A stretch of 10,019 bases of DNA. Origin: an uncultured Spirochaetales bacterium. GTDB taxonomy: Bacteria > Spirochaetota > Spirochaetia > CAZPZF01. The notes under the pieces are model-generated. The model was given only the letters and a program-made list of their open reading frames with translations. It did no database searches and was not told the origin of the DNA. Position numbers and translations under genes: made by a program. The stretch is taken from NCBI GenBank assembly GCA_964590705.1, contig CAZPZF010000121.1, positions 1 to 10,019 of the forward strand, given 5' to 3'. Numbering within the stretch: the stretch's first letter is position 1; each line of letters opens with the position of its first letter. Shown here in pieces: positions 1 through 10,019 of the stretch.

Positions 1-1168
1 CCTGGGAGCGTCGAATCTCATCATCGGCGCGGGTCCCACCCTCTACTTCATCGGTTGCGCCGTCTTTCCCCTCGTTTCCGGGCTGCTCACCGACGGACGG
101 GGAAACAAGAAACGGGCCGTCATCCTGACCCACCTTTTTCCCGCGGTGACTACGATCCTTCTGGGACTCTTCCTCAATCTCTTCGGAACAGGAGGGGAAC
201 CAGAAACGGGGCGCGTCGTCATTCCCCTCTTTCTGACCGGCTACGCAGTCTTTTCCATGGGAATCGGCATGCTGCTCCCAGTCTGGCAGAACTACCTCGT
301 CACGATCTTCTCTCCGCAGTCGAGCGTTCCGGCCCTTGCGGTCATGATGATCGCCCAGAGCGGCTCGAAGCTCGGAAGCAGTCTCATCATCCAGGAATTC
401 GTGAAACGGTATGGTTTCGCGGTGGCTCCGACCTCGGTCTTCTTCGTCATCGTAGGCACTCTCTTCACCGTCGGCAGCCTCTGTTTCGTCATCACCCGCG
501 AGCGCGGAACGGAACCAGGTGAGCGGGGAGAACCGCGCCGGCCGCCTCTCGAAGCGCTCCGGACCGTTTTCCGGAACAGGAACTTCCTCCTCTTCCTGGG
601 AAACGAGTTCGAGTCGAGCGCGGTGACCGGCATCCTCGCCTTCTACGCCACATACGCCACAGGGTATCATGCCGTCGCCCCGGATGTGGGAGCGGGGCTC
701 TTCGTCGCCCTCAACCACGCCGGCGCCATCGTCACCAATATCGCGCTCGGCTGGTTCGGATTCCTCTCCCTAAAGGGCAAATGCGTCCTCTCCAAAGCGC
801 TCACCCTCGCAGCGGTCGCCATCCTGGTGATCGGAAGCTCGACAGCTCCGTTCCTCGTCGTTAGTCTCCTCTTGGGAACGGCGCGCGCCGTACGCTGGCT
901 CATCTACGCCCCGGCCGTTAAACAGATATCGGGGAGCAAGGATGCCACCGTTTTCTTCTCCGTAGCCCCCATCCTGACCCTGCCGCTTAGCGCGGGGATC
1001 CCCCTCCTGGGAGGGAAGATTCTCGACAGTCTTTCGAATCTGGGGGCGGGCGCCTACAGGATCGTCTTCTGCTGCATGGCCTTCTTCGTCGTTCTCGCGT
1101 TGATCTCGAACCTCCTGACCGATTTCGGCGGCCAGAGCGGTCAGCGGGAAGAACCCGCTTCGCCGTAG
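1..1168 (+). CDS. MFS-type transporter, 5'-truncated by the window edge (reading frame opens at position 2)
   Basis: The frame starting at position 2 is open from the window edge to the stop at 1166-1168. The translation is multi-pass hydrophobic and contains a cytoplasmic loop 'GLLTDGRGNKKRAVIL' matching the MFS motif A (G-x-L-a-D-r-x-G-r-k). Third codon positions are G/C-rich like the other genes. The 146 start in the ORF track is a GTG inside a longer open frame, so the real start lies upstream of the window. Confidence 0.8.
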   Translation, partial: LGASNLIIGAGPTLYFIGCAVFPLVSGLLTDGRGNKKRAVILTHLFPAVTTILLGLFLNLFGTGGEPETGRVVIPLFLTGYAVFSMGIGMLLPVWQNYLVTIFSPQSSVPALAVMMIAQSGSKLGSSLIIQEFVKRYGFAVAPTSVFFVIVGTLFTVGSLCFVITRERGTEPGERGEPRRPPLEALRTVFRNRNFLLFLGNEFESSAVTGILAFYATYATGYHAVAPDVGAGLFVALNHAGAIVTNIALGWFGFLSLKGKCVLSKALTLAAVAILVIGSSTAPFLVVSLLLGTARAVRWLIYAPAVKQISGSKDATVFFSVAPILTLPLSAGIPLLGGKILDSLSNLGAGAYRIVFCCMAFFVVLALISNLLTDFGGQSGQREEPASP

Positions 1169-1190: not shown

Positions 1191-3185
1191 TCAGTCCGCG
1201 TATTCGGAAAGCGGGGTCGTAGACACCGGCTTCCTGAAAAGGGAGAAGAGGATCCCTAGAATGACGCAGTTGATCACGGACGCCGCGGCGAACAGGTTCC
1301 ACCGGGGATTCCCCGAAGCCACGCTTCCGACGTACGAAAAGAGCTTCAGGCTGATCGTATAGGCCTCATCGTTGTCAAGAAAGAGGAGCGGGGCCATGAA
1401 TCCGTTCCACGCCGAGAGAAACGCCATCATCATCGAGGTGGCTATGGCGGGCATGCAGATCGGGAGGAGGATCCTCGTCATGTACCGCACTCCACCCATT
1501 CCCTCCAGCAGCGCGGTCTCCTCTATGGAACGCGGCACCCCGTCCAGGAAGGCCTTCATGGTGAAGAGGCTGAAGACCACCGTCTGGTTCAGGTAGATGC
1601 AGACGAGTGGAACATATGTGCCGATCAAGCCCATGCCGCGGAAGATCCCGTAGAGGGGGACGAGGGAGTGCATGCCGCCGAGCATTCCCAGCGCTTGGAC
1701 AAAGGTGAGGAAGCCGTACACGAAGCGGTCGCTCTTTCCCGAAAGCCAGACCGCGGTCGGGAAGGTAAAGAGGGGGATGAGCAGGGCGGTCGCTCCCGCG
1801 ACGATCGTGGTATTCAGGAAATAGCGGAATATCGATTCCTGGGTGATCAGCCTGATGAAATTCTTTCCCGTGAGGAATCGGGGGATCAGCCTGTCCACAT
1901 AGCAGGCGCTGACGCCTGAGAAGCTCATCCACAGGAGCATGAAGATGATGAGGAGGGTCGATACGCAGAGGAGCAACGCGGTCGTCCAGTGGGAAAAAGC
2001 GTAGACCCCGCGCCTGATCGCACCGGGTTCCGGCGGTCGGCGGAACAGGAAGGCCCCCGCCGCGAGAACCGACAGGATGACCGCCGGATGGAATCCCTGA
2101 AAAAAACCGTTCCGCGATACAGCGACAACCATGAGGATGAGCTCTCCCGCGGCAGCGGGCGCCAGCGCTTTGGGCAGGAACGCGGTGACTGTGTACGCAG
2201 CTGCCCACAAAGGTCCGAAGCGCCCTCCGAGGAAGAGGTGAAAGACCGCGCAGAGGAGGGAAAGCATGCGGGACGGTTCCATGGGAAAAGGCCTGCGCCT
2301 GCCGCCCGATTTCCGCCTTCTGATGAGGAGCCACACCGACATGGCCGCGAGGATCCCGATCGAGAGGATCACCGAGTAGGCAGAGACGGCGCCGAAATCT
2401 TCCTCGCCGAAGAAAAGATCGTAGAGATAGATACCCGCGGTTGTCGTGGCCCCCAGGATGGACCGTTCCGTGATCCCGGAGACCAGGGGAGGCCCACCCG
2501 CGGTGAAGATGTGCAGCAAGGTGAATTCCTTGAGCCCCTTGATGAAGGTAAGGACGCCCATCGCTAGAAGCGTCTCCTTGACCGCGGGGGAGAATATCAC
2601 CGTGACGATATCGCCCCACCTCGCGCCGTCTAGCCGCGCCGCGTCGATCGTTTCCGCGCGCACCTTTCTGATGGCGCCCAGGATGACGAAAGCCGTGAGG
2701 GGAACGGTCATCCAGAGGCTCACCCAGAGAGCGGAGAGGAAGCTCCCGGCCGGGTCGGTCATGAGATTGATCTCGGCCCCTGTGAGCCGGGACAGGAGCG
2801 ATCTGCCGCCGTTTCCATGGATCAGCGCCCTCCAGAGGGGAGCCGCGATGTAGACCGGGATTCCCCACGGAACGAGAAGCACCCCGTAGAGAAGGGACGA
2901 CCCCCTGCCGGGCCTGGCGAGAGCGGCCGCGCACAAAAAACCCATCGCGAGGGACAGCGCGGTGTTCGCCGCGGCCCACAGGGCGGTCACCGACACGCTG
3001 TAGAGGAAACCCCGGTCAGAGAGGAGATCGCGGTAGTTGTCCAGGCCAGCACAGCTCCTCTCATCGTACGTATCGTGGAAAAAGGAGCCGTACACGGCGC
3101 TCGCGAAGGGTGCGATCCCGACCAGGAGGATCAGCAGAAGGAGGGGGATGATGAGGGTATCGGGTTTCGAAATGGATCGGCGCAT
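1191..3185 (-). CDS. Fused two-domain ABC transporter permease: a MalF/UgpA-like half plus a MalG/UgpE-like half in one 664-aa polypeptide
   Basis: ATG at 3185-3183. The protein has at least 12 predicted hydrophobic spans. It carries two separate 'EAA' permease signature loops: 'ETIDAARLDGARWGDIVTVIFSPAVKETLLAMG' in the N-terminal half and 'IEETALLEGMGGVRYMTRILLPICMPAIATS' in the C-terminal half. The two halves are joined by a basic linker (RRRKSGGRRRP). This is the last gene of the minus-strand sugar operon. Confidence 0.88.
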   Translation of the reverse strand: MRRSISKPDTLIIPLLLLILLVGIAPFASAVYGSFFHDTYDERSCAGLDNYRDLLSDRGFLYSVSVTALWAAANTALSLAMGFLCAAALARPGRGSSLLYGVLLVPWGIPVYIAAPLWRALIHGNGGRSLLSRLTGAEINLMTDPAGSFLSALWVSLWMTVPLTAFVILGAIRKVRAETIDAARLDGARWGDIVTVIFSPAVKETLLAMGVLTFIKGLKEFTLLHIFTAGGPPLVSGITERSILGATTTAGIYLYDLFFGEEDFGAVSAYSVILSIGILAAMSVWLLIRRRKSGGRRRPFPMEPSRMLSLLCAVFHLFLGGRFGPLWAAAYTVTAFLPKALAPAAAGELILMVVAVSRNGFFQGFHPAVILSVLAAGAFLFRRPPEPGAIRRGVYAFSHWTTALLLCVSTLLIIFMLLWMSFSGVSACYVDRLIPRFLTGKNFIRLITQESIFRYFLNTTIVAGATALLIPLFTFPTAVWLSGKSDRFVYGFLTFVQALGMLGGMHSLVPLYGIFRGMGLIGTYVPLVCIYLNQTVVFSLFTMKAFLDGVPRSIEETALLEGMGGVRYMTRILLPICMPAIATSMMMAFLSAWNGFMAPLLFLDNDEAYTISLKLFSYVGSVASGNPRWNLFAAASVINCVILGILFSLFRKPVSTTPLSEYAD

Positions 3186-3195
3186 TTGTTATAAC

Positions 3196-3221
3196 AGCTT
3201 CCCGGGTTCTCCCGGGAAGCT
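3196..3221 (-). promoter_or_regulatory. Perfect 11-bp inverted repeat (AGCTTCCCGGG-ttct-CCCGGGAAGCT) forming a stable stem-loop between the lipoprotein stop and the permease start. It could act as an intra-operon attenuator or mRNA-stability element.
   Basis: Read directly from the sequence: 3196-3206 is the exact reverse complement of 3211-3221, separated by a 4-nt loop. It sits in the 49-bp gap between the stop codon at 3235-3237 and the start at 3185. On the operon (minus) strand it is followed by UGUUAUAACAAAUG rather than a U-tract, so it is not a canonical intrinsic terminator. Confidence 0.5.
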
Positions 3222-3234
3222 TTAACCTCTCTTT

Positions 3235-4665
3235 CTAGAAGCGGAGGATGATCTTCGCGACTTGCCGGACCGCCTTGATCCCGTCGGGAACGAGTTTCGC
3301 GTCCTTGTCCCAGACGAGGATGAGTGGCCAGGCGTCCGCGGGTAGTTCCGCGTCTCCCTGGAACATGGCGAGGATCACGTCCTCGTTGTCGTGAAGCTGC
3401 CGGGAATCGAGCTTCACCGTGAATCCGTCAGCGGCCACAACTTCCACGGTGTAGCCCTTCTCGGCGGCCGCGGCGTCGTAGGAGAGGATCGACCTGTCCA
3501 TCTGCTTGTGGGGCATGTACTGAGGGTCGTCTGCGTAGGCAAGGAGCAGGTACAGGGGAATGCCGGTGTAGGAGAGGACCTCGTTGGTCTTCCTGTTGAG
3601 GTACTGCACCGTACGGGGATGGCAGCTCACGCCGCTCTGCACGGTCTGGCGGTCGAGAACCGCGGAGATCCGGCCCTCGATCCCTAGGGAGAATTCCCGA
3701 TAGGGTTCGCCCATGATCGCGATCCGTTTCACCATCCTGACCGAACTGTGGCCCTGGATATTCGGAATCGACGGGCCGACCTTTACAGTCCTGATATACC
3801 CCGGATCGAGCGGGAGGTATTCACCGTCCATCCTGAAGGCGAGGATCCAGACGCCGTCGGCCCTGTCCACGAAATCGCCGGCGCTGAAACTCATCTCGTA
3901 GCCGTCCATGGCCGCGAAGGTGATGGTCGAGTCTTTTCCGAGCTGCACGAAGCTCGACAGGAATGGGTAGAGTTCCACGCCACCGTAGGCGTTGGTGTAG
4001 GTGGTTCCCGCCGAGGTGGTGAAACTCCCCTTGCCCTCGAGGTAGTACACGGAGGACTCCAGGTCCTCGAGCGTGAAACTCTTCTTTTCGCCGTTGACAA
4101 CGATCTCGAGGGTGAAGACCTCGGACTGCGAGGTATCGGCGCCGAGCCCCAGCTCGATGGATACGACGTCGCGCACCCACAAAGTTCCGGGAACCGTGCC
4201 GACGATGTTCGGGGTCGTGGTCACGCCGGCCTCGTTGTCGCTGAGGTACAGGGCATCGGGGTCGTACTCGGCGGTGTTGAAGGTCACCGTGTACCCGTCC
4301 CTTCCGGTCACGGTGATGTCGTACCCCTTCTCCCACAGGGCGGAGTCGAAGAGGAACGGATGCTTGGCGTCCTCGCCGTCGGCCATGGCTGCGAGGTACC
4401 AGAGAGGCATACCCTTGAAGAGCACCCGCTCGCCCTTGCGCTCGAGGGTTATCTCCCGGTAATGGCTCGCGTGCTTCTGCGCCTCAACGAAATAGGCGGC
4501 GTCGACCGTCTCCTCGCGCACGCCGCTGATGACGATCTCCCAATCGCCCGCGCCGGAAGCGCCGGGCCCCGTGGCGCATGAGGAGAAGAGGGCAGCGCTC
4601 CCGGCGAGAAGGATCCCGAGGAGAATGGCTGCAATAGATGGAACCACCGAACGACGAGTTGTCAT
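3235..4665 (-). CDS. Lipoprotein (477 aa) made of three tandem ~130-aa repeats. Probable accessory or substrate-binding component of the ABC importer; otherwise hypothetical.
   Basis: I placed the start at the internal ATG 4665-4663, which is preceded by AAAGGAG with an 8-nt spacer. The track's upstream GTG at 4983 would add 106 residues with no ribosome-binding site. The N-terminus 'MTTRRSVVPSIAAILLGILLAGSAALFSSC' is a signal peptide with a lipobox-like L-F-S-S-C. Each of three internal repeats shows G-[MVI]-PL-[WY]-x-LL, then DGY-x-[VM]-[TS]-F, then D-[AV]-x-[LI]-LA-x(4-8)-G-x-[LP], then a [VI]-[KR]-x-[VI]-x-x-I tail. Confidence 0.8.
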   Translation of the reverse strand: MTTRRSVVPSIAAILLGILLAGSAALFSSCATGPGASGAGDWEIVISGVREETVDAAYFVEAQKHASHYREITLERKGERVLFKGMPLWYLAAMADGEDAKHPFLFDSALWEKGYDITVTGRDGYTVTFNTAEYDPDALYLSDNEAGVTTTPNIVGTVPGTLWVRDVVSIELGLGADTSQSEVFTLEIVVNGEKKSFTLEDLESSVYYLEGKGSFTTSAGTTYTNAYGGVELYPFLSSFVQLGKDSTITFAAMDGYEMSFSAGDFVDRADGVWILAFRMDGEYLPLDPGYIRTVKVGPSIPNIQGHSSVRMVKRIAIMGEPYREFSLGIEGRISAVLDRQTVQSGVSCHPRTVQYLNRKTNEVLSYTGIPLYLLLAYADDPQYMPHKQMDRSILSYDAAAAEKGYTVEVVAADGFTVKLDSRQLHDNEDVILAMFQGDAELPADAWPLILVWDKDAKLVPDGIKAVRQVAKIILRF

Positions 4666-4781
4666 AAAACGCTCCTTTTCATCATACGAATCCCGGATGC
4701 CCGCGGCGCGATCCGCATGGGACCCGGTCACAGATCCGGCGTCGGGGTGAACCCCACGCTCGTTGCCCGCGCCGGCCGCTC

Positions 4782-6269
4782 TCACATATTGGCGTCTATC
4801 ACCGCCTGACCCTGCCGTAGGGTTTCCTCGACGGTCAGCTGCCCCTCGAGGGCGAACCGGAGAAGTTTCCACATGGTGTTCTTGAAAACGGCGTATCCCC
4901 GTTCCGGGGGAATGGGCGTGCCCGTATCCGCGCTGTACCGGAGGACGGGATAATAGGGATTCCGCGCCTTGACGATCTCCCACGCCCGCTCGTCGGCCGG
5001 CAGCTTCGCCATTTCCGCCGTGAAGCGCTGCTGAACCCCTATTCCGCAGAGATACTGAATGAGGCGGCGGGCGAGCACCGGGTTGCGCGTCTTCCGCGGA
5101 ATGGCGAAGGCCTTGAAATCGAGGACCGGAGAAACGGGAAGACCGGTACGGTCGTTCATCGGATAGGGGGAGCCGGAAAAGGGAATGCCCAGCTCCAGGA
5201 AATCGGGGATGCTGTAGGAACCGGAGAGGATCATCGCCACGTTGCCGGCGACGAACTCGGCGATCATCGCGTCCCGCTCCATCTCGGCCAGGTATCCCAG
5301 GGATTTGAGGCGGAGGAGGTATCGGATGGCCTCCCGTGTCGGGCTGTCATCTATGCGGACCGACCCGTCTGCCTCCAGGAACGGGATCTTCCCAAAGGAG
5401 ACCTGAAACGGAACGAGCCAGTAGGCGGAATAGACGTTCCAGCTCATGGGCACGACCCCGGTTCCGGCTATCCGCGCCGCGATCCTCTCCATGTCAGACA
5501 AGGTCCACGAGGACGCGGCGGGTTCCCGCACAAGCCTCGGATTGGAGAAGAGGAGCTGGGAATCGAAATAGAAAGGAACAGCCCAGACCTTGCCCCCGGC
5601 GCTGAACGAGAAAAGCCCCTTGGAGGTGATCGTTTCAGGAACGAAGGAGTCCACGTTCTGGATCGCCTTGGCCTCGACGAGGGCGGGGATGTAATCCGAT
5701 TGGACCATGATCACGTCGGGCGGTGTGCCTCCCCCGCGGAGCACGGAGAGGAGCTTGGAGTCGGTCTTGGGAACCTCGGTCACCTTGACCCTGATGCCAT
5801 GCAGTTCCGCGAAGCGGGCGATCTCCCGTTTCAGGAGGGGGACCCCTTCCCAGCTCACCCAGACCTCGACATCGGCGGCCGGCGCCTCCTCGCCGTATAC
5901 CCGGATCGTCTTGACGCCGGCGATCCGCCAACCGTCTCCCTCCAGGTCGAATTCCGTGCCTCGGGGAACAAGATACCAGCGGGAGAACCGATCGACCAGA
6001 TCGTCCCCCGCCAGGGTCCGCGATCCCGTTCCGGAGACCTCGACCCGGTACACTGAAATGAAGAGGGGAAGTAACTCATCCGCGGAGATCCCCCGGACCA
6101 ACGAACCGCCGACCGGCACGAGGTAGAGGAGATCGGCGATATCGTTATGGGAGATCGCCGCGCGGGGAGTTCCGTTGACAATGAGATCCAGGGCAGGCAG
6201 GGGAAAAGCGCAAAAAGCAACGAGGATAAAAGATAGAATGGCCCTGCGGCTTCCGATGGGGAATTTCAC
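4782..6269 (-). CDS. ABC transporter extracellular solute-binding protein, family 1 (MalE-like carbohydrate binding), with an extra ~120-aa N-terminal module
   Basis: The C-terminal ~380 aa show typical family-1 solute-binding-protein features: after the N-terminal module come 'EVWVSWEGVPLLKREIARFAE', 'GKVWAVPFYFDSQLL' and 'VAGNVAMILSGSY'. I placed the start at GTG 6269-6267, preceded by GGAAAGGAAGAGG and giving a clean signal peptide 'MKFPIGSRRAILSFILVAFCAFPLPA'. The track's 6377 start is a TTG, has no ribosome-binding site, and gives 36 hydrophilic residues before the signal peptide. Confidence 0.82.
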   Translation of the reverse strand: MKFPIGSRRAILSFILVAFCAFPLPALDLIVNGTPRAAISHNDIADLLYLVPVGGSLVRGISADELLPLFISVYRVEVSGTGSRTLAGDDLVDRFSRWYLVPRGTEFDLEGDGWRIAGVKTIRVYGEEAPAADVEVWVSWEGVPLLKREIARFAELHGIRVKVTEVPKTDSKLLSVLRGGGTPPDVIMVQSDYIPALVEAKAIQNVDSFVPETITSKGLFSFSAGGKVWAVPFYFDSQLLFSNPRLVREPAASSWTLSDMERIAARIAGTGVVPMSWNVYSAYWLVPFQVSFGKIPFLEADGSVRIDDSPTREAIRYLLRLKSLGYLAEMERDAMIAEFVAGNVAMILSGSYSIPDFLELGIPFSGSPYPMNDRTGLPVSPVLDFKAFAIPRKTRNPVLARRLIQYLCGIGVQQRFTAEMAKLPADERAWEIVKARNPYYPVLRYSADTGTPIPPERGYAVFKNTMWKLLRFALEGQLTVEETLRQGQAVIDANM

Positions 6270-6363
6270 GATCCTCTTCCTTTCCAAATACGGGGGGCTC
6301 AGCCGTTTCCCGCTGAACCGTTTCGGTCCTGTTCCATAGCGTGGCGCCGTAGGATACAGGACT

Positions 6364-6393
6364 CGGAAGTATCTCAATGACGAACGGAAGTAT
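6364..6393 (-). promoter_or_regulatory. Two direct repeats CGGAAGTAT(n)TCAAT spaced 21 bp (two helical turns) apart; candidate regulator-binding sites upstream of the transporter operon
   Basis: Read directly: CGGAAGTAT occurs at 6364-6372 and at 6385-6393, each followed within 1-3 nt by TCAAT. The second copy overlaps the putative -10 of the minus-strand promoter. Confidence 0.35.
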
Positions 6394-6417
6394 GCATCAA
6401 TAACGCTGTCTGGTCAA
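6389..6417 (-). promoter_or_regulatory. Candidate sigma70-type promoter for the sugar-uptake operon: -35 TTGACC, 17-nt spacer, -10 CATACT (read on the minus strand)
   Basis: The reverse complement of 6412-6417 is TTGACC and the reverse complement of 6389-6394 is CATACT, with exactly 17 nt between them. This would put the transcription start near 6381 and give a ~110-nt leader before GTG 6269. The -10 is a weak match (4/6). Confidence 0.3.
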
Positions 6418-6441
6418 GGGAAGGGATGTGCGAGCCTTCCC
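6418..6441 (-). other. Stem-loop GGGAAGG-(10 nt)-CCTTCCC lying 24 bp downstream of the hydrolase stop codon; possible partial terminator or processing site
   Basis: A 7-bp GC-rich inverted repeat is read directly from the sequence. It is not followed by a U-tract on the minus strand, so terminator function is doubtful. Confidence 0.3.
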
Positions 6442-6464
6442 GTCCGCGTTGGCCCCGCTGAATT

Positions 6465-7742
6465 CTACGCGGGCCGGCTTTCCAGGCATGGAGCGCCCGT
6501 GTCCCTCCCGAGAATCTCCGCGGCCCTGCTGAAAACATGGTCAAAGGCCTCATCGACTCCCGGGCCGCAGGGGCCGTTCAGGGGAAACGGTTGTTCGTGG
6601 CTGTACGGAAAGGGAAAGTCCGATACCTCCACCCTGCCCGGGGGGCAGAAGCGGCCGAGGGTTTCGACGACTCCCGCGCCCGGCATCACCTCGTCTCCGG
6701 CTAGGGCGACAGCCCCCAACCGCGGGCCGAGTTCCCGAAACCGCGCGTTTCTGACCGCGGAGCCCTCGCGCAGGTCCAGCATGCTCCCGATGCACTGTCC
6801 AAGGCGCTGGAAACCTCCGGCGATCCGTTGGAGAAGGGATCCGGTCTCCTCCTTTGCGGTAGTCCGGCGTGCAACCGTCAATTCGCTGTCCATAAACTCG
6901 AGGAGGGCACGCTCCGCACCGCTGTCCATGATGTAACGGGAGACAGGGCGCATCAGATCCATCGTCGAACCTCCGCAGAAGAGGAAGCCCCGCGAGTGCG
7001 CGAATCGGTTCCCCGGATCCGCCATGAGGAGGATTTCGGCGAGGAGCGCTCCGATCGAGTATCCGAAAAAATCGAAGCTGCAGTCCCAGGGAAAAACCTG
7101 ATGCGCGCCGCCGGCAATCTGGTCCGTGAGGCTGATGATATCACGATAGGTTTGCAACCCGGAGAGGAGGAACCTGCCCGGGAACTCGTGGAGCCGGCTG
7201 CTGAGCGCGGCATTGATGAACGACACTTCCGTGATCCCCGGATACCGCTCCTTGCGCAGGGACGCGAGTCGCATCAGGATCCGCCTATCCGTCCAGCTTC
7301 GGGGGACCCGGTCCATATGGAAAGCGATCGGAAAGAGGATGACTCCCTTGCCCGTACGCCTGCACAGGGCCGCGGCCCAGGGGAGATACTTATCCCAACT
7401 CTTCTCGTTCAAGCCGTGGAGGAGGAAAATCGCTCCCCTCGGCTTCGGATCGCTCGCGGGAAGAACGATGTAATAGGGAAATCGGGTGTTCTCATCCGCG
7501 TCCTGAAGGGAGAACCCGTGCACATCAAGGGTGCTGTCCAGCCCGTCTTGTCGGGCGCGCTCCTGTCCGCTCCACGTCATGGGGAGAGGCGATTCGAAAT
7601 CGGAACGGAACGCCAGCTTCTTGATCGAGACATCCGAGCGGGCGTCATCCACCCCTCTCGAAGCGGCGGTACCGCTCTTCAGGGATTCGAACAGGCGTGA
7701 AAGGGAAGAGAGCGATTCGGCGTACGTTTCTTTTGGATGCAT
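6465..7742 (-). CDS. Alpha/beta-fold hydrolase (serine esterase/lipase-like), predicted cytoplasmic
   Basis: The nucleophile elbow G-Y-S-I-G sits in 'FDFFGYSIGALLAEILL'. Upstream is a block 'GAIFLLHGLNEKSW' typical of alpha/beta hydrolases, and a candidate catalytic His lies in 'FPFPYSHEQPF'. There is no signal peptide. I placed the start at ATG 7742-7740; the track's 7796 start is a TTG. AGGAG lies 13 nt upstream of the ATG. Confidence 0.78.
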   Translation of the reverse strand: MHPKETYAESLSSLSRLFESLKSGTAASRGVDDARSDVSIKKLAFRSDFESPLPMTWSGQERARQDGLDSTLDVHGFSLQDADENTRFPYYIVLPASDPKPRGAIFLLHGLNEKSWDKYLPWAAALCRRTGKGVILFPIAFHMDRVPRSWTDRRILMRLASLRKERYPGITEVSFINAALSSRLHEFPGRFLLSGLQTYRDIISLTDQIAGGAHQVFPWDCSFDFFGYSIGALLAEILLMADPGNRFAHSRGFLFCGGSTMDLMRPVSRYIMDSGAERALLEFMDSELTVARRTTAKEETGSLLQRIAGGFQRLGQCIGSMLDLREGSAVRNARFRELGPRLGAVALAGDEVMPGAGVVETLGRFCPPGRVEVSDFPFPYSHEQPFPLNGPCGPGVDEAFDHVFSRAAEILGRDTGAPCLESRPA

Positions 7743-7837: not shown

Positions 7838-7866
7838 TTGACAGATCCCACTAGTTGTTCTATTAT
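7838..7866 (+). promoter_or_regulatory. Sigma70-type promoter for the GntR operon: -35 TTGACA (7838-7843), 17-nt spacer, -10 TATTAT (7861-7866)
   Basis: The -35 is an exact consensus hexamer and the -10 is 5/6, with optimal 17-bp spacing. It sits in the only AT-rich island of the window, ~40 bp upstream of the GntR ATG. Confidence 0.6.
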
Positions 7867-7903: not shown

Positions 7904-8326
7904 ATGACCGCAGTGAAAAACAAGGAAGAGAATCTCTCGTTTACCCTCGATCCGAAGAGCGGAGTTCCGTACTACAAGCAGATAATGGTTCAGATCGAGA
8001 TGGCGATCGCGGACGGGAGGCTTGTAAGCGGAGATCAGCTTCCCACGGTCAGGAGCCTGGCGGTCGATCTCCGGATCAACCCCAATACCGTTGCCCGGGC
8101 GTACAGTTCCCTCGAGATCAGGGGAATCGTGAACACACAGCAGGGCACCGGAACCTTCATCAGCGACAAGAAAGTGTCCATGACCGACATCGAGCGAGAG
8201 AGGATCCTCACGGAGCTGACGGCCGAGTTTCTCGCAAAGGTCCAATCATACGGATTCACCAAGGACGACATAATAGCGTTCCTGGGCGAGCTGGGAACCC
8301 AGGACCAAGGAGGTGAGAGGAGATGA
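7904..8326 (+). CDS. GntR-family transcriptional regulator, short YtrA-like subfamily (140 aa)
   Basis: ATG at 7904 with AGGA 6 nt upstream. The N-terminal winged HTH 'VPYYKQIMVQIEMAIADGRLVSGDQLPTVRSLAVDLRINPNTVARAYSSLEIRGIVNTQQGTGTFI' matches the GntR signature. The C-terminal ~50 aa form only two short helices, the YtrA-type architecture that usually accompanies ABC transporter genes. Confidence 0.9.
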   Translation: MTAVKNKEENLSFTLDPKSGVPYYKQIMVQIEMAIADGRLVSGDQLPTVRSLAVDLRINPNTVARAYSSLEIRGIVNTQQGTGTFISDKKVSMTDIERERILTELTAEFLAKVQSYGFTKDDIIAFLGELGTQDQGGERR

Positions 8327-9486
8327 ACCCATTCACACAAAAGGCAGCGACATTCGCGAGAATTAAGAACGTGCAAAAAAAGAGCCTGGAGCGGGACTTT
8401 TCGTACAATCCGTTCGCGTTTCTCATCCTCGCATTATTTCTCGGGACCGGTGTCCTTCTCCAATACCGATTTTTAAACGATTTCGACTGGGGAAAAACCG
8501 CCTTCACCGCCGTCGGAACCATCGCGGGCGTCATCGTCATCGCCGCTATCCCTCTCTGGGTAACGGTCCTGACAATGATAGCGCTGGGCTGGCTTTCCAT
8601 GTTCGTCTGGCTGGGAAGCGGGTACTGGATCCTATTTCTCTTCATCAGCTTCGGGCTCTTCCTTTCACCCTCGTGCCAGCTCATCTTCCAGTGGGACAAG
8701 GCTGTGATCCTCAGGGTGGGGCGCTTTCATCGGATAAAAGGCCCGGGACTCTTCCTCCTCATGCCCATGGTCGACCGGATCGCCGCGTTCATCGACACGA
8801 GGATCCGGGCAACCGATTTCAGCGCGGAGAAAACGCTGACCCGGGACACGGTTCCGGTTCATGTGGACGCCCTGGCTTTCTGGATGATCTGGAACGCCAA
8901 GCAAGCGGTTCTCGAGGTCGAGAACTATCTGGAGGCGGTGGTCCTGTCCGCGCAGACGGCGCTCCGCGATTCGATAGGCAAGCACGATCTCGCAGATCTT
9001 CTCTCGGAGCGGGAACGGCTCTGCGCGGAGATCCAGAGCGCCCTCGACGCTAAGACCAATCCGTGGGGTATCACGATCCTCTCCATCGAATTCACCGACA
9101 TCATCATCCCGCAGGCTCTCGAGGACGCGATGAGCAAGCGGGCACAGGCGGAACGGGAGAAGCAGTCCCGTGTGATCCTCGGCACCGCGGAGGTCGAGAT
9201 AGCAAGAAAATTCGCGGAGGCAGCCGAAAGCTACCGCGATAACCCGACGGCCCTCCACCTGCGCGCCATGAATATGGTGTACGAGGGGATACGGCAGAAA
9301 GGCTCCATGATCATCCTCCCCTCCTCCGCACTCGACACGATGAACCTCGGCGGCGCCATGGGAACCGCCGCGTTCGCGAAGGGACTGGAGAGGGAAGGGA
9401 ACCCGGCCGACGGGCCTCAGGCCGGAGACGGCACCGGGCATGGCGGGGAAAACGGTCAGGCTGAAACCGACGAAATCGGACGATAA
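8323..9486 (+). CDS. SPFH/Band-7 (stomatin/prohibitin-like) domain membrane protein with an N-terminal polytopic membrane region (~3-4 hydrophobic spans)
   Basis: ATG at 8323 overlaps the GntR TGA (ATGA), with a strong ribosome-binding site AAGGAGGTGA upstream. Residues ~30-115 are hydrophobic spans. The SPFH core runs from 'WDKAVILRVGRFHRIKGPGLFLLMPMVDRIAAFIDTRIRATDF' to 'ILGTAEVEIARKFAEAAESY'. The C-terminal tail is Gly/acidic-rich. Confidence 0.85.
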   Translation: MNPFTQKAATFARIKNVQKKSLERDFSYNPFAFLILALFLGTGVLLQYRFLNDFDWGKTAFTAVGTIAGVIVIAAIPLWVTVLTMIALGWLSMFVWLGSGYWILFLFISFGLFLSPSCQLIFQWDKAVILRVGRFHRIKGPGLFLLMPMVDRIAAFIDTRIRATDFSAEKTLTRDTVPVHVDALAFWMIWNAKQAVLEVENYLEAVVLSAQTALRDSIGKHDLADLLSERERLCAEIQSALDAKTNPWGITILSIEFTDIIIPQALEDAMSKRAQAEREKQSRVILGTAEVEIARKFAEAAESYRDNPTALHLRAMNMVYEGIRQKGSMIILPSSALDTMNLGGAMGTAAFAKGLEREGNPADGPQAGDGTGHGGENGQAETDEIGR

Positions 9487-9503: not shown

Positions 9504-10019
9504 ATGGTACGGATAGAAAACGTCAGAAGAGACTACGTCATGGGCGATGTCGCGGTCCAAGCCCTGAAAGGGATCAGCCTTACGGTCAACAAGGGGGATT
9601 TCCTGGCCATCGCTGGACCCTCCGGTTCGGGAAAAACGACACTCCTCAACATCATCGGCTGCATAGACCGGGCGGACGGCGGAACCATCCGGATAGACGG
9701 GGAAGATGTGGGAAAGAAGACAAAGGACGAGCTTGCCCTCTTCAGGAGAAGGCAGCTCGGCTTCATCTTCCAGACCTTCAACCTCATCCCCGTCCTGACC
9801 GCGTACGAGAACGTTGCCTTCGCCCTTTCGATCCTCAACATCCCGGCGGAGGAGGAGCGGCGGAGGACTATGGCCATCCTCGACGAGGTTGGGCTTTCCG
9901 GTATGGAGAACCGCCGGCCGAACCGACTCTCCGGCGGGCAGCAGCAGCGGGTCGCCATCGCCCGGGCCCTGGTGAAGGAGCCCCTCATCGTCCTCGCCGA
10001 CGAACCCACGGCAAACCTC
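9504..10019 (+). CDS. ABC transporter ATP-binding protein, MacB/LolD/FtsE-like, 3'-truncated by the window edge
   Basis: ATG at 9504 with GGGGAG 7 nt upstream. Walker A is 'GPSGSGKTT', the Q-loop 'FIFQ', the ABC signature 'LSGGQQQRVAIARAL' and Walker B 'IVLADEPT'. The frame is open to the window end. The antisense ORF 9533-10009 in the track is an artefact. Confidence 0.92.
   Translation, partial: MVRIENVRRDYVMGDVAVQALKGISLTVNKGDFLAIAGPSGSGKTTLLNIIGCIDRADGGTIRIDGEDVGKKTKDELALFRRRQLGFIFQTFNLIPVLTAYENVAFALSILNIPAEEERRRTMAILDEVGLSGMENRRPNRLSGGQQQRVAIARALVKEPLIVLADEPTANL

Follow-up and report, generated by a model that had tools for sequence, protein, structure and literature searches.

The subject of this analysis is a 10,019-nt metagenomic contig of an uncultured Spirochaetales bacterium (GenBank assembly GCA_964590705.1, contig CAZPZF010000121.1; hereafter the window), also available as a 10,502-bp version of the same contig at JGI, and in particular a cassette of three genes encoding a periplasmic solute-binding protein, a lipoprotein, and a fused ATP-binding cassette (ABC) permease. 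Together with a hydrolase gene, these make up four long open reading frames (ORFs) arranged head to tail on the minus strand (Table 1), and their coordinates and domain types were all given correctly in an initial annotation, which had read them as one transcription unit headed by the hydrolase. The region is composed of two units: the hydrolase gene, a lineage-specific neighbour, and a probable self-contained operon consisting of a promoter-like site, a riboswitch, and the genes for the binding protein, the lipoprotein, and the permease. This cassette is a unit of the molybdenum cofactor/tungsten cofactor (Moco/Tuco) regulon, encoding the periplasmic and membrane parts of a carbohydrate-type (CUT1) importer along with a lipoprotein predicted to carry three copies of the sulfite-oxidase (SUOX) fold.

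Table 1. Positions of the genes and regulatory features in the window.
Feature	Position	Strand	Description
DUF6051 alpha/beta-hydrolase gene	6465..7742	-	425 aa; neighbour gene, outside the conserved cassette and the riboswitch-controlled unit
Candidate sigma-70-like promoter	6389..6417	-	-35 TTGACC 6417-6412, 17-nt spacer, -10 CATACT 6394-6389
Moco/Tuco riboswitch aptamer, P3-less variant	6261..6380	-	Rfam RF01055, cmscan 72.8 bits
Periplasmic solute-binding protein	4782..6269	-	495 aa, GTG start; Pfam SBP_bac_8, SBP_bac_1
Lipoprotein, three sulfite-oxidase-fold domains (predicted)	3235..4665	-	476 aa; D1 nt 4138-4548, D2 nt 3706-4122, D3 nt 3238-3699
Fused ABC permease	1191..3185	-	664 aa; two BPD_transp_1 halves
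MFS gene	146..1168	+	convergent with the permease gene

The extent of the conserved unit follows from a comparison of gene maps from five independent contigs and 71 species-representative genome loci, probed with the proteins of the window; the loci carry L-numbers, L001 being the window's own contig. All 71 Spirochaetota species loci, wherever contig ends allow, carry the genes in the sequence binding protein, lipoprotein, fused permease, and the gaps inside the cassette are often only a few bases long. Further carriers of the cassette include Candidatus Marispirochaeta associata JC231 (JWTM01) and the contigs CAXXHO010000005.1, CAXXVZ010000005.1, and CAXXYH010000004.1 of metagenome-assembled genomes. 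The hydrolase gene lies upstream of the cassette only in L001 and in L081, whose binding protein is 84% identical to that of the window, and it is absent from all 71 species-level loci, from four further contexts, and from the 106 ORFs examined right next to the cassette. What is conserved is therefore the three-gene cassette, the hydrolase being a neighbour specific to this lineage.

In the window, the intergenic gaps measure 195 nt between the hydrolase and binding-protein genes, 116 nt between the binding-protein and lipoprotein genes, and 49 nt between the lipoprotein and permease genes. The first of these (6270-6464) had been treated as a plain junction within a four-gene transcript, a view that does not survive the finding that it holds both a promoter-like site and a Moco/Tuco riboswitch. 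The candidate promoter, located by a consensus scan, matches the consensus at 9 of 12 positions and ends about 8 nt before the aptamer starts; the 5′ end of the transcript is predicted to lie near 6382. When the gap is aligned with that of L081, the two sequences diverge, with insertions and deletions, just after the hydrolase stop codon and become nearly identical from TTGACC-17-CATACT onward. Both hexamers are unchanged in this one close relative, and a promoter function is suggested by the consensus match together with this conservation. A terminator scan returned four sites against 6.0 expected by chance, all of them intragenic and none in the three gaps, and with such numbers it says nothing on operon structure.

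The leader of the binding-protein gene matches the Rfam model RF01055 over its full length (model positions 1-135), at twice the gathering score of 36 (72.8 bits, E 1.9e-16). The 3′ end of the aptamer falls in the region of the GTG start codon, so that the GTG at 6269, a start call that agrees with that of JGI, lies within the match, and the 3′ strand of stem P1 (GGAAG in the window; GGAAG or GGAGG across the matches) is the Shine-Dalgarno sequence. Of 15 testable loci, 14 likewise have RF01055 above its gathering score ahead of the binding-protein gene, as do L004 and L052, with scores of 39.6-77.8 bits in related loci. A motif profile built from these matches and run over the 60 species loci that include upstream DNA gave a match just upstream of the binding-protein gene in 55, and a candidate start codon follows 0-11 nt past the tail motif in the 54 matches where this motif could be located. 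In an RNAalifold analysis of 14 sequences, 10 of 19 predicted pairs, distributed over P1, P2, P4, and P5, showed double changes that keep the pair, in a MAFFT alignment that recovers the Rfam structure only in part. Folded as a single sequence, the leader is not unusually stable (z -1.45), and the case for the riboswitch is thus carried by the Rfam model and the comparative data.

Stem P3 (model positions ~60-75) is deleted in the window and in 13 other aligned matches, and a crude spacing test found short spacing at this position in 46 of 49 matches; the three with long spacing (L058, L060, and L078) may carry insertions or a P3 stem. The riboswitch at L028:730-884 contains an insertion of ~34 nt behind the P4 hairpin and nevertheless reaches 44.9 bits. 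P3-less Moco-motif RNAs have been reported to correlate almost perfectly with tungsten-cofactor metabolism (Regulski et al. 2008; PMC2408646), and the deletion of P3 therefore places the present RNA in this tungsten-cofactor-associated class. The same study described a platform in which the ribosome-binding site is part of P1, as at E. coli moaA (PMC2408646). Because the Shine-Dalgarno sequence of the cassette is likewise the 3′ strand of P1, the riboswitch would most simply act as a translational OFF switch, in which P1, stabilised by the cofactor, should block translation of the binding protein.

The cassette thus shares with known Moco-motif operons (E. coli moaABCDE and the modABC and tupABC leaders) the RNA family, its position in the 5′ leader, the ribosome-binding site in P1, the association with genes for Mo/W-cofactor supply, and, as in tungsten users, the P3-less subclass. 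It differs in what lies downstream, which is moa, mod, tup, or wtp genes in the known operons and a MalE/MalFG-type importer with a SUOX-fold lipoprotein here. No description of Moco riboswitches in spirochaetes was found in the searchable literature, and the present matches extend the reported host range of the Moco-motif RNA to Spirochaetota. Two loci carry a second Moco-motif riboswitch beside the cassette, ahead of a gene for an NAD-type aldehyde dehydrogenase (PF00171): L004:13454-13598 on the plus strand (49.8 bits) and L052:15114-14991 on the minus strand (64.4 bits). This dehydrogenase looks like a cofactor-independent backup for a tungsten aldehyde oxidoreductase that would be off when the cofactor is available.

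The binding protein and the permease belong to the MalE/MalFG (CUT1) type, as the initial annotation had recognised in calling the locus a carbohydrate-type ABC importer. The Pfam families SBP_bac_8 (2.2e-20) and SBP_bac_1 (6.7e-16) both cover only residues ~180-460 of the binding protein, and its PDB matches include Thermotoga maritima MalE1 (1.2e-21, phmmer) and MalE2 (also ~1e-21), with an alignment that starts at residue ~134. The N-terminal extension noted earlier is real: it forms an additional beta-rich domain of residues ~24-132 (nt 5874-6200), for which Pfam gave no credible match and which stands apart, at residues 27-128, in an AlphaFold model of high quality (predicted local distance difference test score, pLDDT, 92.6; predicted template-modelling score, pTM, 0.89). 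The MalE-fold core (~134-495) superposes on maltodextrin-binding proteins in Foldseek with template-modelling (TM) scores of 0.83-0.87, and the ModA-type family SBP_bac_11 is matched only at E 0.0064, below threshold. Many Lys and Arg residues are invariant. Across the N-termini of 35 homologues the protein has a cleavable-looking signal peptide and no conserved lipobox Cys; since its partner is the lipid-anchored protein, tethering through the lipoprotein is conceivable.

The lipoprotein has a signal peptide with a conserved lipobox Cys and, as had been noticed, three repeats. Comparison of the protein with itself by BLASTP found no internal repeats, and neither did the same comparison of the permease; the repeats are seen by profile-profile comparison, in which D1 and D3 are related at 99.5% probability, D2 and D3 at 94.6%, and D1 and D2 at 92.2%. 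Its AlphaFold model (pLDDT 82, with a low pTM that indicates a flexible domain arrangement) gave no matches other than to SUOX folds, which in Foldseek include sulfite oxidase/sulfite dehydrogenase (2e-7) and PruR (TM 0.73). On the strength of this model, the lipoprotein is predicted to be three copies of the SUOX fold, which in sulfite oxidases binds molybdopterin and in PruR small pterins. D2 is the most conserved of the three domains, matches the Pfam Moco-binding domain (Oxidored_molyb), partly keeps the C-terminal signature G-x-S-V-K-(W/M) of SUOX enzymes, and bears an invariant TTSAGT at the tip of a long hairpin, the hairpins of D1 and D3 being short. A profile of D3 run against the PDB gave chance matches only (Nup62 coiled coil, antifreeze proteins). 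D3 (3238-3699, minus strand) carries a Cys-His pair (SCH), a P-H-K-Q motif, and two Asp residues that are invariant in 20 full-length homologues and without equivalent in D1 or D2; among 31 aligned domain sequences the Cys and the first His are nearly invariant, and the Cys is not at the canonical Mo-ligand position. These residues may form a metal or ligand site. A homologue search returned more than 150 clusters, nearly all from Spirochaetota metagenome-assembled genomes and annotated as 'molybdopterin-dependent oxidoreductase' or hypothetical protein.

A functional parallel is PruR, a periplasmic, non-enzymatic SUOX-fold protein that holds a small pterin between a Tyr and a Trp, with a hydrogen bond from an Asn (PMC11194511, PMC13259868); its pterin contacts are N102, Y104, and W160, together with the PW70 motif (PMC11194511). 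In weak sequence alignments (E 0.03-1.5), as opposed to superposed coordinates, the N-D-Y of PruR corresponds to an invariant D-G-Y of D2, and DG(Y/F) also occurs in D1 and D3. The lipoprotein resembles PruR (PDB 7KOS, 7KOM, 7KP2, and 7RKB) in being a periplasmic, degenerate SUOX fold of ~140 aa per domain that lacks the Mo-ligand Cys and appears to keep the N/D-x-Y pterin-contact motif of PruR and SUOX proteins. It differs in that three domains are joined in one lipoprotein instead of forming a single soluble domain, in the absence of a PW motif and of an evident stacking Trp, in its constant association with an ABC importer (binding protein and permease always) rather than with a DcpA-type cyclic-di-GMP enzyme, and in its occurrence in Spirochaetota, not Proteobacteria. 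It would work in the manner of PruR while standing outside the PruR family.

The permease gene, in agreement with the initial annotation, joins two permeases. Pfam places BPD_transp_1 in two stretches, NCBIfam returns GlcU, GlcT, MalG, and MalF, along with a weak match to ModB (2.2e-11), and the PDB matches include SugB (3.8e-16), MalF (1.2e-10), SugA, and MalG. Residues ~1-290 are MalF/SugA-like and ~400-664 MalG/SugB-like, separated by a linker of residues ~300-400. EAA-type loops occur in both halves: AETIDAARLDGA in the N half was read by eye, and EETALLEGMGG in the C half was the only one found by a pattern scan. Every locus that spans this gene retains the fusion. Fused permeases of the Fe(III), thiamine, and 2-aminoethylphosphonate types were considered as a model of the fusion and ruled out, both halves matching CUT1 members best. 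The linker (window 2000-2300, minus strand) is hydrophobic, poorly conserved, and variable in length, and may add extra membrane helices; called permease genes across the loci encode 575-664 aa, and the open frame spans ~580-710 codons.

As noted before, no ATPase gene lies between the permease gene and the convergent MFS gene, and the accompanying proposal of an ATPase supplied in trans is plausible. In L046, L047, L049, L055, and L077, which probably form one clade, the cassette has a MalK/UgpC-type ATPase gene (~380 aa) as its divergent neighbour, with the riboswitch in between. These ATPases are 51-57% identical to an E. coli MalK probe, and when the ORFs of ten loci, the L055 neighbour among them, were compared with NCBIfam, UgpC gave the best match (2.4e-149). 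An ATPase of this type is the likely energiser of the importer. Another ABC ATPase gene is cut by the right edge of the window. Its product, of 243 aa in the full contig and only 34% identical to the same probe, is not of the matching type, and the gene belongs to a divergent operon described below.

With other CUT1 importers (MalEFGK2, LpqY-SugABC, and UgpBAEC), the system has in common the MalE-fold protein, the MalF/SugA and MalG/SugB domains with their EAA loops, and an ATPase that is often encoded elsewhere, as in MsmK/UgpC-type sharing. It departs from them in the fusion of the permeases through a variable hydrophobic linker, in a binding protein that has an extra N-domain and no lipid anchor, in an obligatory third extracytoplasmic component, the lipoprotein, and in the use of a cofactor riboswitch instead of a sugar regulator, with no sugar-catabolic genes among the commonest families linked to it.

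The survey of the genomic neighbourhood took in 106 directly adjacent ORFs and 140 ORFs drawn from ten loci of 21 kb, with only the 25 commonest families listed; the NCBIfam surveys were dominated by redundant models. Among these 25 families there was no enrichment of carbohydrate-active enzymes (CAZymes), glycoside hydrolases, sugar regulators, moa/moe genes, or mod/tup genes, single occurrences being possible. The flanking genes are heterogeneous and include those for patatin, amidohydrolases, aldehyde dehydrogenase, MetNIQ, and others. Genes for aldehyde:ferredoxin oxidoreductases (AFOR_N/AFOR_C), the archetypal tungsten enzymes, lie less than 10 kb from the cassette at L023:19346-21079, L039:5446-7074, L032:4385-5995, and L078:7212-8759. 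Five loci (L073, L074, L076, L079, and L080) represent the most divergent, Sphaerochaetaceae-type subfamily, whose lipoproteins are 33-36% identical to that of the window. In all five, the last 31 nt of the permease ORF also belong to a convergent ORF downstream, and the six dihydropyrimidinase/hydantoinase-like amidohydrolases among the immediate neighbours are probably these overlapping ORFs. Two loci come from bins named outside Spirochaetota, L058 (MWEM01000043.1, 'Thermotogae bacterium') and L076 (JAFGWC010000078.1, 'Bacteroidales bacterium'), which reflects either mis-binning or horizontal transfer.

Since the regulator is a Moco/Tuco riboswitch, the cassette points to Mo/W-cofactor supply and not to sugar use. 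We infer that it is made when the Mo/W cofactor runs low and that whatever it imports restores the supply. For the substrate itself we lean, at a little short of an even chance, towards a molybdopterin-type compound, which could be Moco/Tuco (free or released from proteins), molybdopterin without its metal, or a precursor such as cyclic pyranopterin monophosphate. A pterin is favoured because CUT1 systems carry organic solutes, unlike the ModA/TupA/WtpA oxyanion systems, and the binding protein is not ModA/TupA/WtpA-like; because the strictly co-inherited lipoprotein has the fold that binds this pterin; and because apo-SUOX-fold proteins can pick up free Moco, as in the classical nit-1 assay, and other cofactor riboswitches control salvage importers. 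Examples of the latter are the thiamine pyrophosphate, B12, flavin mononucleotide, preQ1, and tetrahydrofolate riboswitches, which control importers of the cofactor itself (PMC3766115). The same logic, an OFF riboswitch for the finished cofactor ahead of an uptake system, is found with the salvage transporters ThiBPQ and ThiT for thiamine, BtuFCD for B12, RibU, QueT, and FolT. For Moco/Tuco, we know of no riboswitch-controlled cofactor salvage transporter. Further points in favour of a pterin are the Pfam match and the D/N-x-Y motif of D2, the lack of a conserved twin-arginine motif in the lipoprotein signal peptide, and signs of tungsten-enzyme use around the cassette, namely the oxidoreductase genes in four loci and the riboswitch-preceded aldehyde dehydrogenase gene in two.

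According to this model, the riboswitch would repress the cassette while the cofactor is plentiful, and the importer would be made when it runs short. The membrane-tethered lipoprotein would trap the pterin outside the cell, and the soluble binding protein, possibly docking there through its N-domain, would carry it to the fused permease, with uptake powered by a MalK/UgpC-type ATPase encoded elsewhere. The system would then be the first dedicated bacterial salvage system for a molybdopterin-type cofactor or precursor, built from a triple apo-SUOX trap, a MalE-like protein, a fused permease, and feedback through a tungsten-cofactor riboswitch; this broader claim is put forward tentatively, as somewhat less probable than its negation. 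No description of bacterial Moco uptake or of this cassette was found in the searchable literature.

Several observations weigh against import of a pterin. Moco is labile, and it is uncertain how far the environment can provide it. In the five Sphaerochaetaceae-type loci the cassette is present and a riboswitch was found neither with the profile nor with Rfam. Neither D1 nor D3 has a sequence match to Moco domains, and Pfam gives nothing credible for them. Where PruR and SUOX proteins have their stacking Trp, sequence alignment places an invariant Met in D2 (SVKM versus SVKW) and nothing evidently equivalent in D1 and D3, so that pterin binding by the lipoprotein is not assured. The canonical Mo-ligand Cys is Ser in D2, where we take the position of TTSAGT to be that of the sulfite-oxidase Mo-ligand loop CAGNRR, from the motif itself and the secondary structure of the model, not a printed alignment. 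A SUOX-like fold is possible for the N-domain of the binding protein as well, the order of its secondary-structure elements resembling that of D2, but two hhalign comparisons of this domain with the lipoprotein repeats, which agreed in register over ~50 residues, gave probabilities of 64% and 9%. Finally, the transporters so far known under Moco-riboswitch control all carry molybdate or tungstate, and none a pterin (PMC2408646, PMC3766115).

This last point supports the main rival, in which the cassette encodes an ABC importer of a new type, for tungstate or molybdate: the MalE-like protein would have been re-tooled for an oxyanion, the SUOX-fold lipoprotein would concentrate or store the metal, and the riboswitch would repress the genes as it does modABC and tupABC. 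Beyond the precedents, all of them Mo/W oxyanion transporters (PMC2408646, PMC3766115), this reading can draw on the company that the P3-less class keeps with tungsten users (PMC2408646), on the tungsten-type oxidoreductase genes near the cassette in four loci, on the ModB match of the permease, weak as it is, and on the many invariant Lys and Arg residues of the binding protein. Against this stand the protein families themselves. The binding protein is MalE-like (1e-21; TM 0.87) and meets SBP_bac_11 only below threshold, the permease is a fusion of the MalF/MalG heterodimer type and not of the ModB/TupB homodimer type, and the adjacent ATPase, where present, is of the MalK/UgpC type. The cassette therefore differs from ModABC, TupABC, and WtpABC both in lacking their type of binding protein and in lacking a single homodimeric permease, its CUT1 matches being the best and that to ModB weaker. 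The lipoprotein would also be left unexplained; to our knowledge, no SUOX-fold domain has a role in binding a free oxyanion. We regard an oxyanion substrate as unlikely, though as an alternative to be taken seriously.

A different function for the same regulation would be that of a cofactor-sparing backup, with the cassette importing an ordinary organic nutrient, such as a sugar or phospho-compound, that is needed only when the W/Mo enzymes are idle, and with the lipoprotein as a degenerate module for binding or scaffolding. A parallel exists in the B12-independent isozymes that are under B12-riboswitch control, the transporter is of the CUT1 family, and the aldehyde dehydrogenase with its own Moco riboswitch in L004 and L052 shows that backup logic exists in these organisms. 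Such a role fails to account for a strictly co-inherited partner with three Moco/pterin-binding folds, and no catabolic genes are consistently linked to the cassette; we consider it improbable.

The lipoprotein could, in principle, be a genuine periplasmic Mo/W enzyme of the sulfite-oxidase family, with the transporter serving its substrate or product. Its database label of 'molybdopterin-dependent oxidoreductase', the invariant Cys-His pair in D3, the Oxidored_molyb match of D2, and the partial C-terminal signature recall enzymes such as SorA, chicken sulfite oxidase, and YedY/MsrP. Unlike these, it has no Mo-ligand Cys at the canonical loop, where D2 has Ser and the D3 Cys lies elsewhere, and neither a dimerisation nor a haem domain, and it is exported as a Sec lipoprotein instead of being matured through the Tat route or in the cytoplasm. 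The signal peptides of 20 homologues contain no conserved twin-arginine motif, and a Sec/lipoprotein signal of this kind implies export in an unfolded state and, hence, no cofactor loading in the cytoplasm. In addition, an OFF-looking platform would mean that the protein is made only when its own cofactor is missing. A conventional molybdoenzyme is thus very unlikely, and the enzyme-plus-transporter arrangement is one to which we give very little credence.

The hydrolase gene upstream does not alter this picture. Its product matches Pfam DUF6051 (E 9.8e-103), has a GYSIG nucleophile motif, and lacks a hydrophobic signal segment; a phmmer search against the PDB yielded chance matches to antibody heavy chains and nothing else. 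The alpha/beta-hydrolases of the DUF6051 family, which is uncharacterised and occurs mainly in Bacteroidota, have a retained catalytic triad and a double cap, and the literature links the family to LytTR, PadR, and acyl-CoA ligase genes and not to carbohydrate esters (PMC11878206). The family classification that the initial annotation had proposed as a check thus yields no tie to carbohydrate esterases. Its proposal of a four-gene operon importing esterified oligosaccharides, to be de-esterified by a cytoplasmic DUF6051 esterase, is consistent with four co-directional genes, CUT1-type transporter parts, and a conserved nucleophile motif (PMC11878206), but can practically be dismissed, given that the link between hydrolase and cassette is confined to the window's own lineage, that a promoter-like site and a Moco/Tuco riboswitch separate the hydrolase from the transporter genes, that its family is not one of carbohydrate esterases (PMC11878206), and that no CAZyme families are among the commonest neighbour families.

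Divergently from the hydrolase gene, the plus strand of the window carries an operon for a small GntR-family regulator (7904-8326), an SPFH/Band-7 membrane protein (8323-9486), and the right-edge ABC ATPase mentioned above (9504-10019, running off the window). A strong promoter-like site, TTGACA-17-TATTAT (11 of 12 consensus matches; 7838-7866, plus strand), precedes this GntR-Band7 operon, and the divergent GntR-DUF6051 pair is also kept in L081.

For the annotation of Spirochaetota genomes, the labels 'maltose-binding protein', 'glycerol-3-phosphate transporter', and 'molybdopterin-dependent oxidoreductase' that the cassette proteins currently bear are probably misleading. If the substrate proved to be tungstate or molybdate, the cassette would represent a fourth, structurally unrelated class of Mo/W importer, and SUOX-fold domains would gain a non-enzymatic extracytoplasmic role beyond PruR signalling. 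The riboswitch-controlled importers for the Mo/W cofactor found so far are metal-oxyanion transporters only (PMC3766115); a pterin substrate, if confirmed, would be functionally new. The cassette offers a concrete, clonable candidate for the question of whether bacteria scavenge Moco/Tuco or its pterin precursors, and, if they do so through this system, microbes in anaerobic communities would be exchanging Mo/W cofactors in the same manner as B12 and thiamine.

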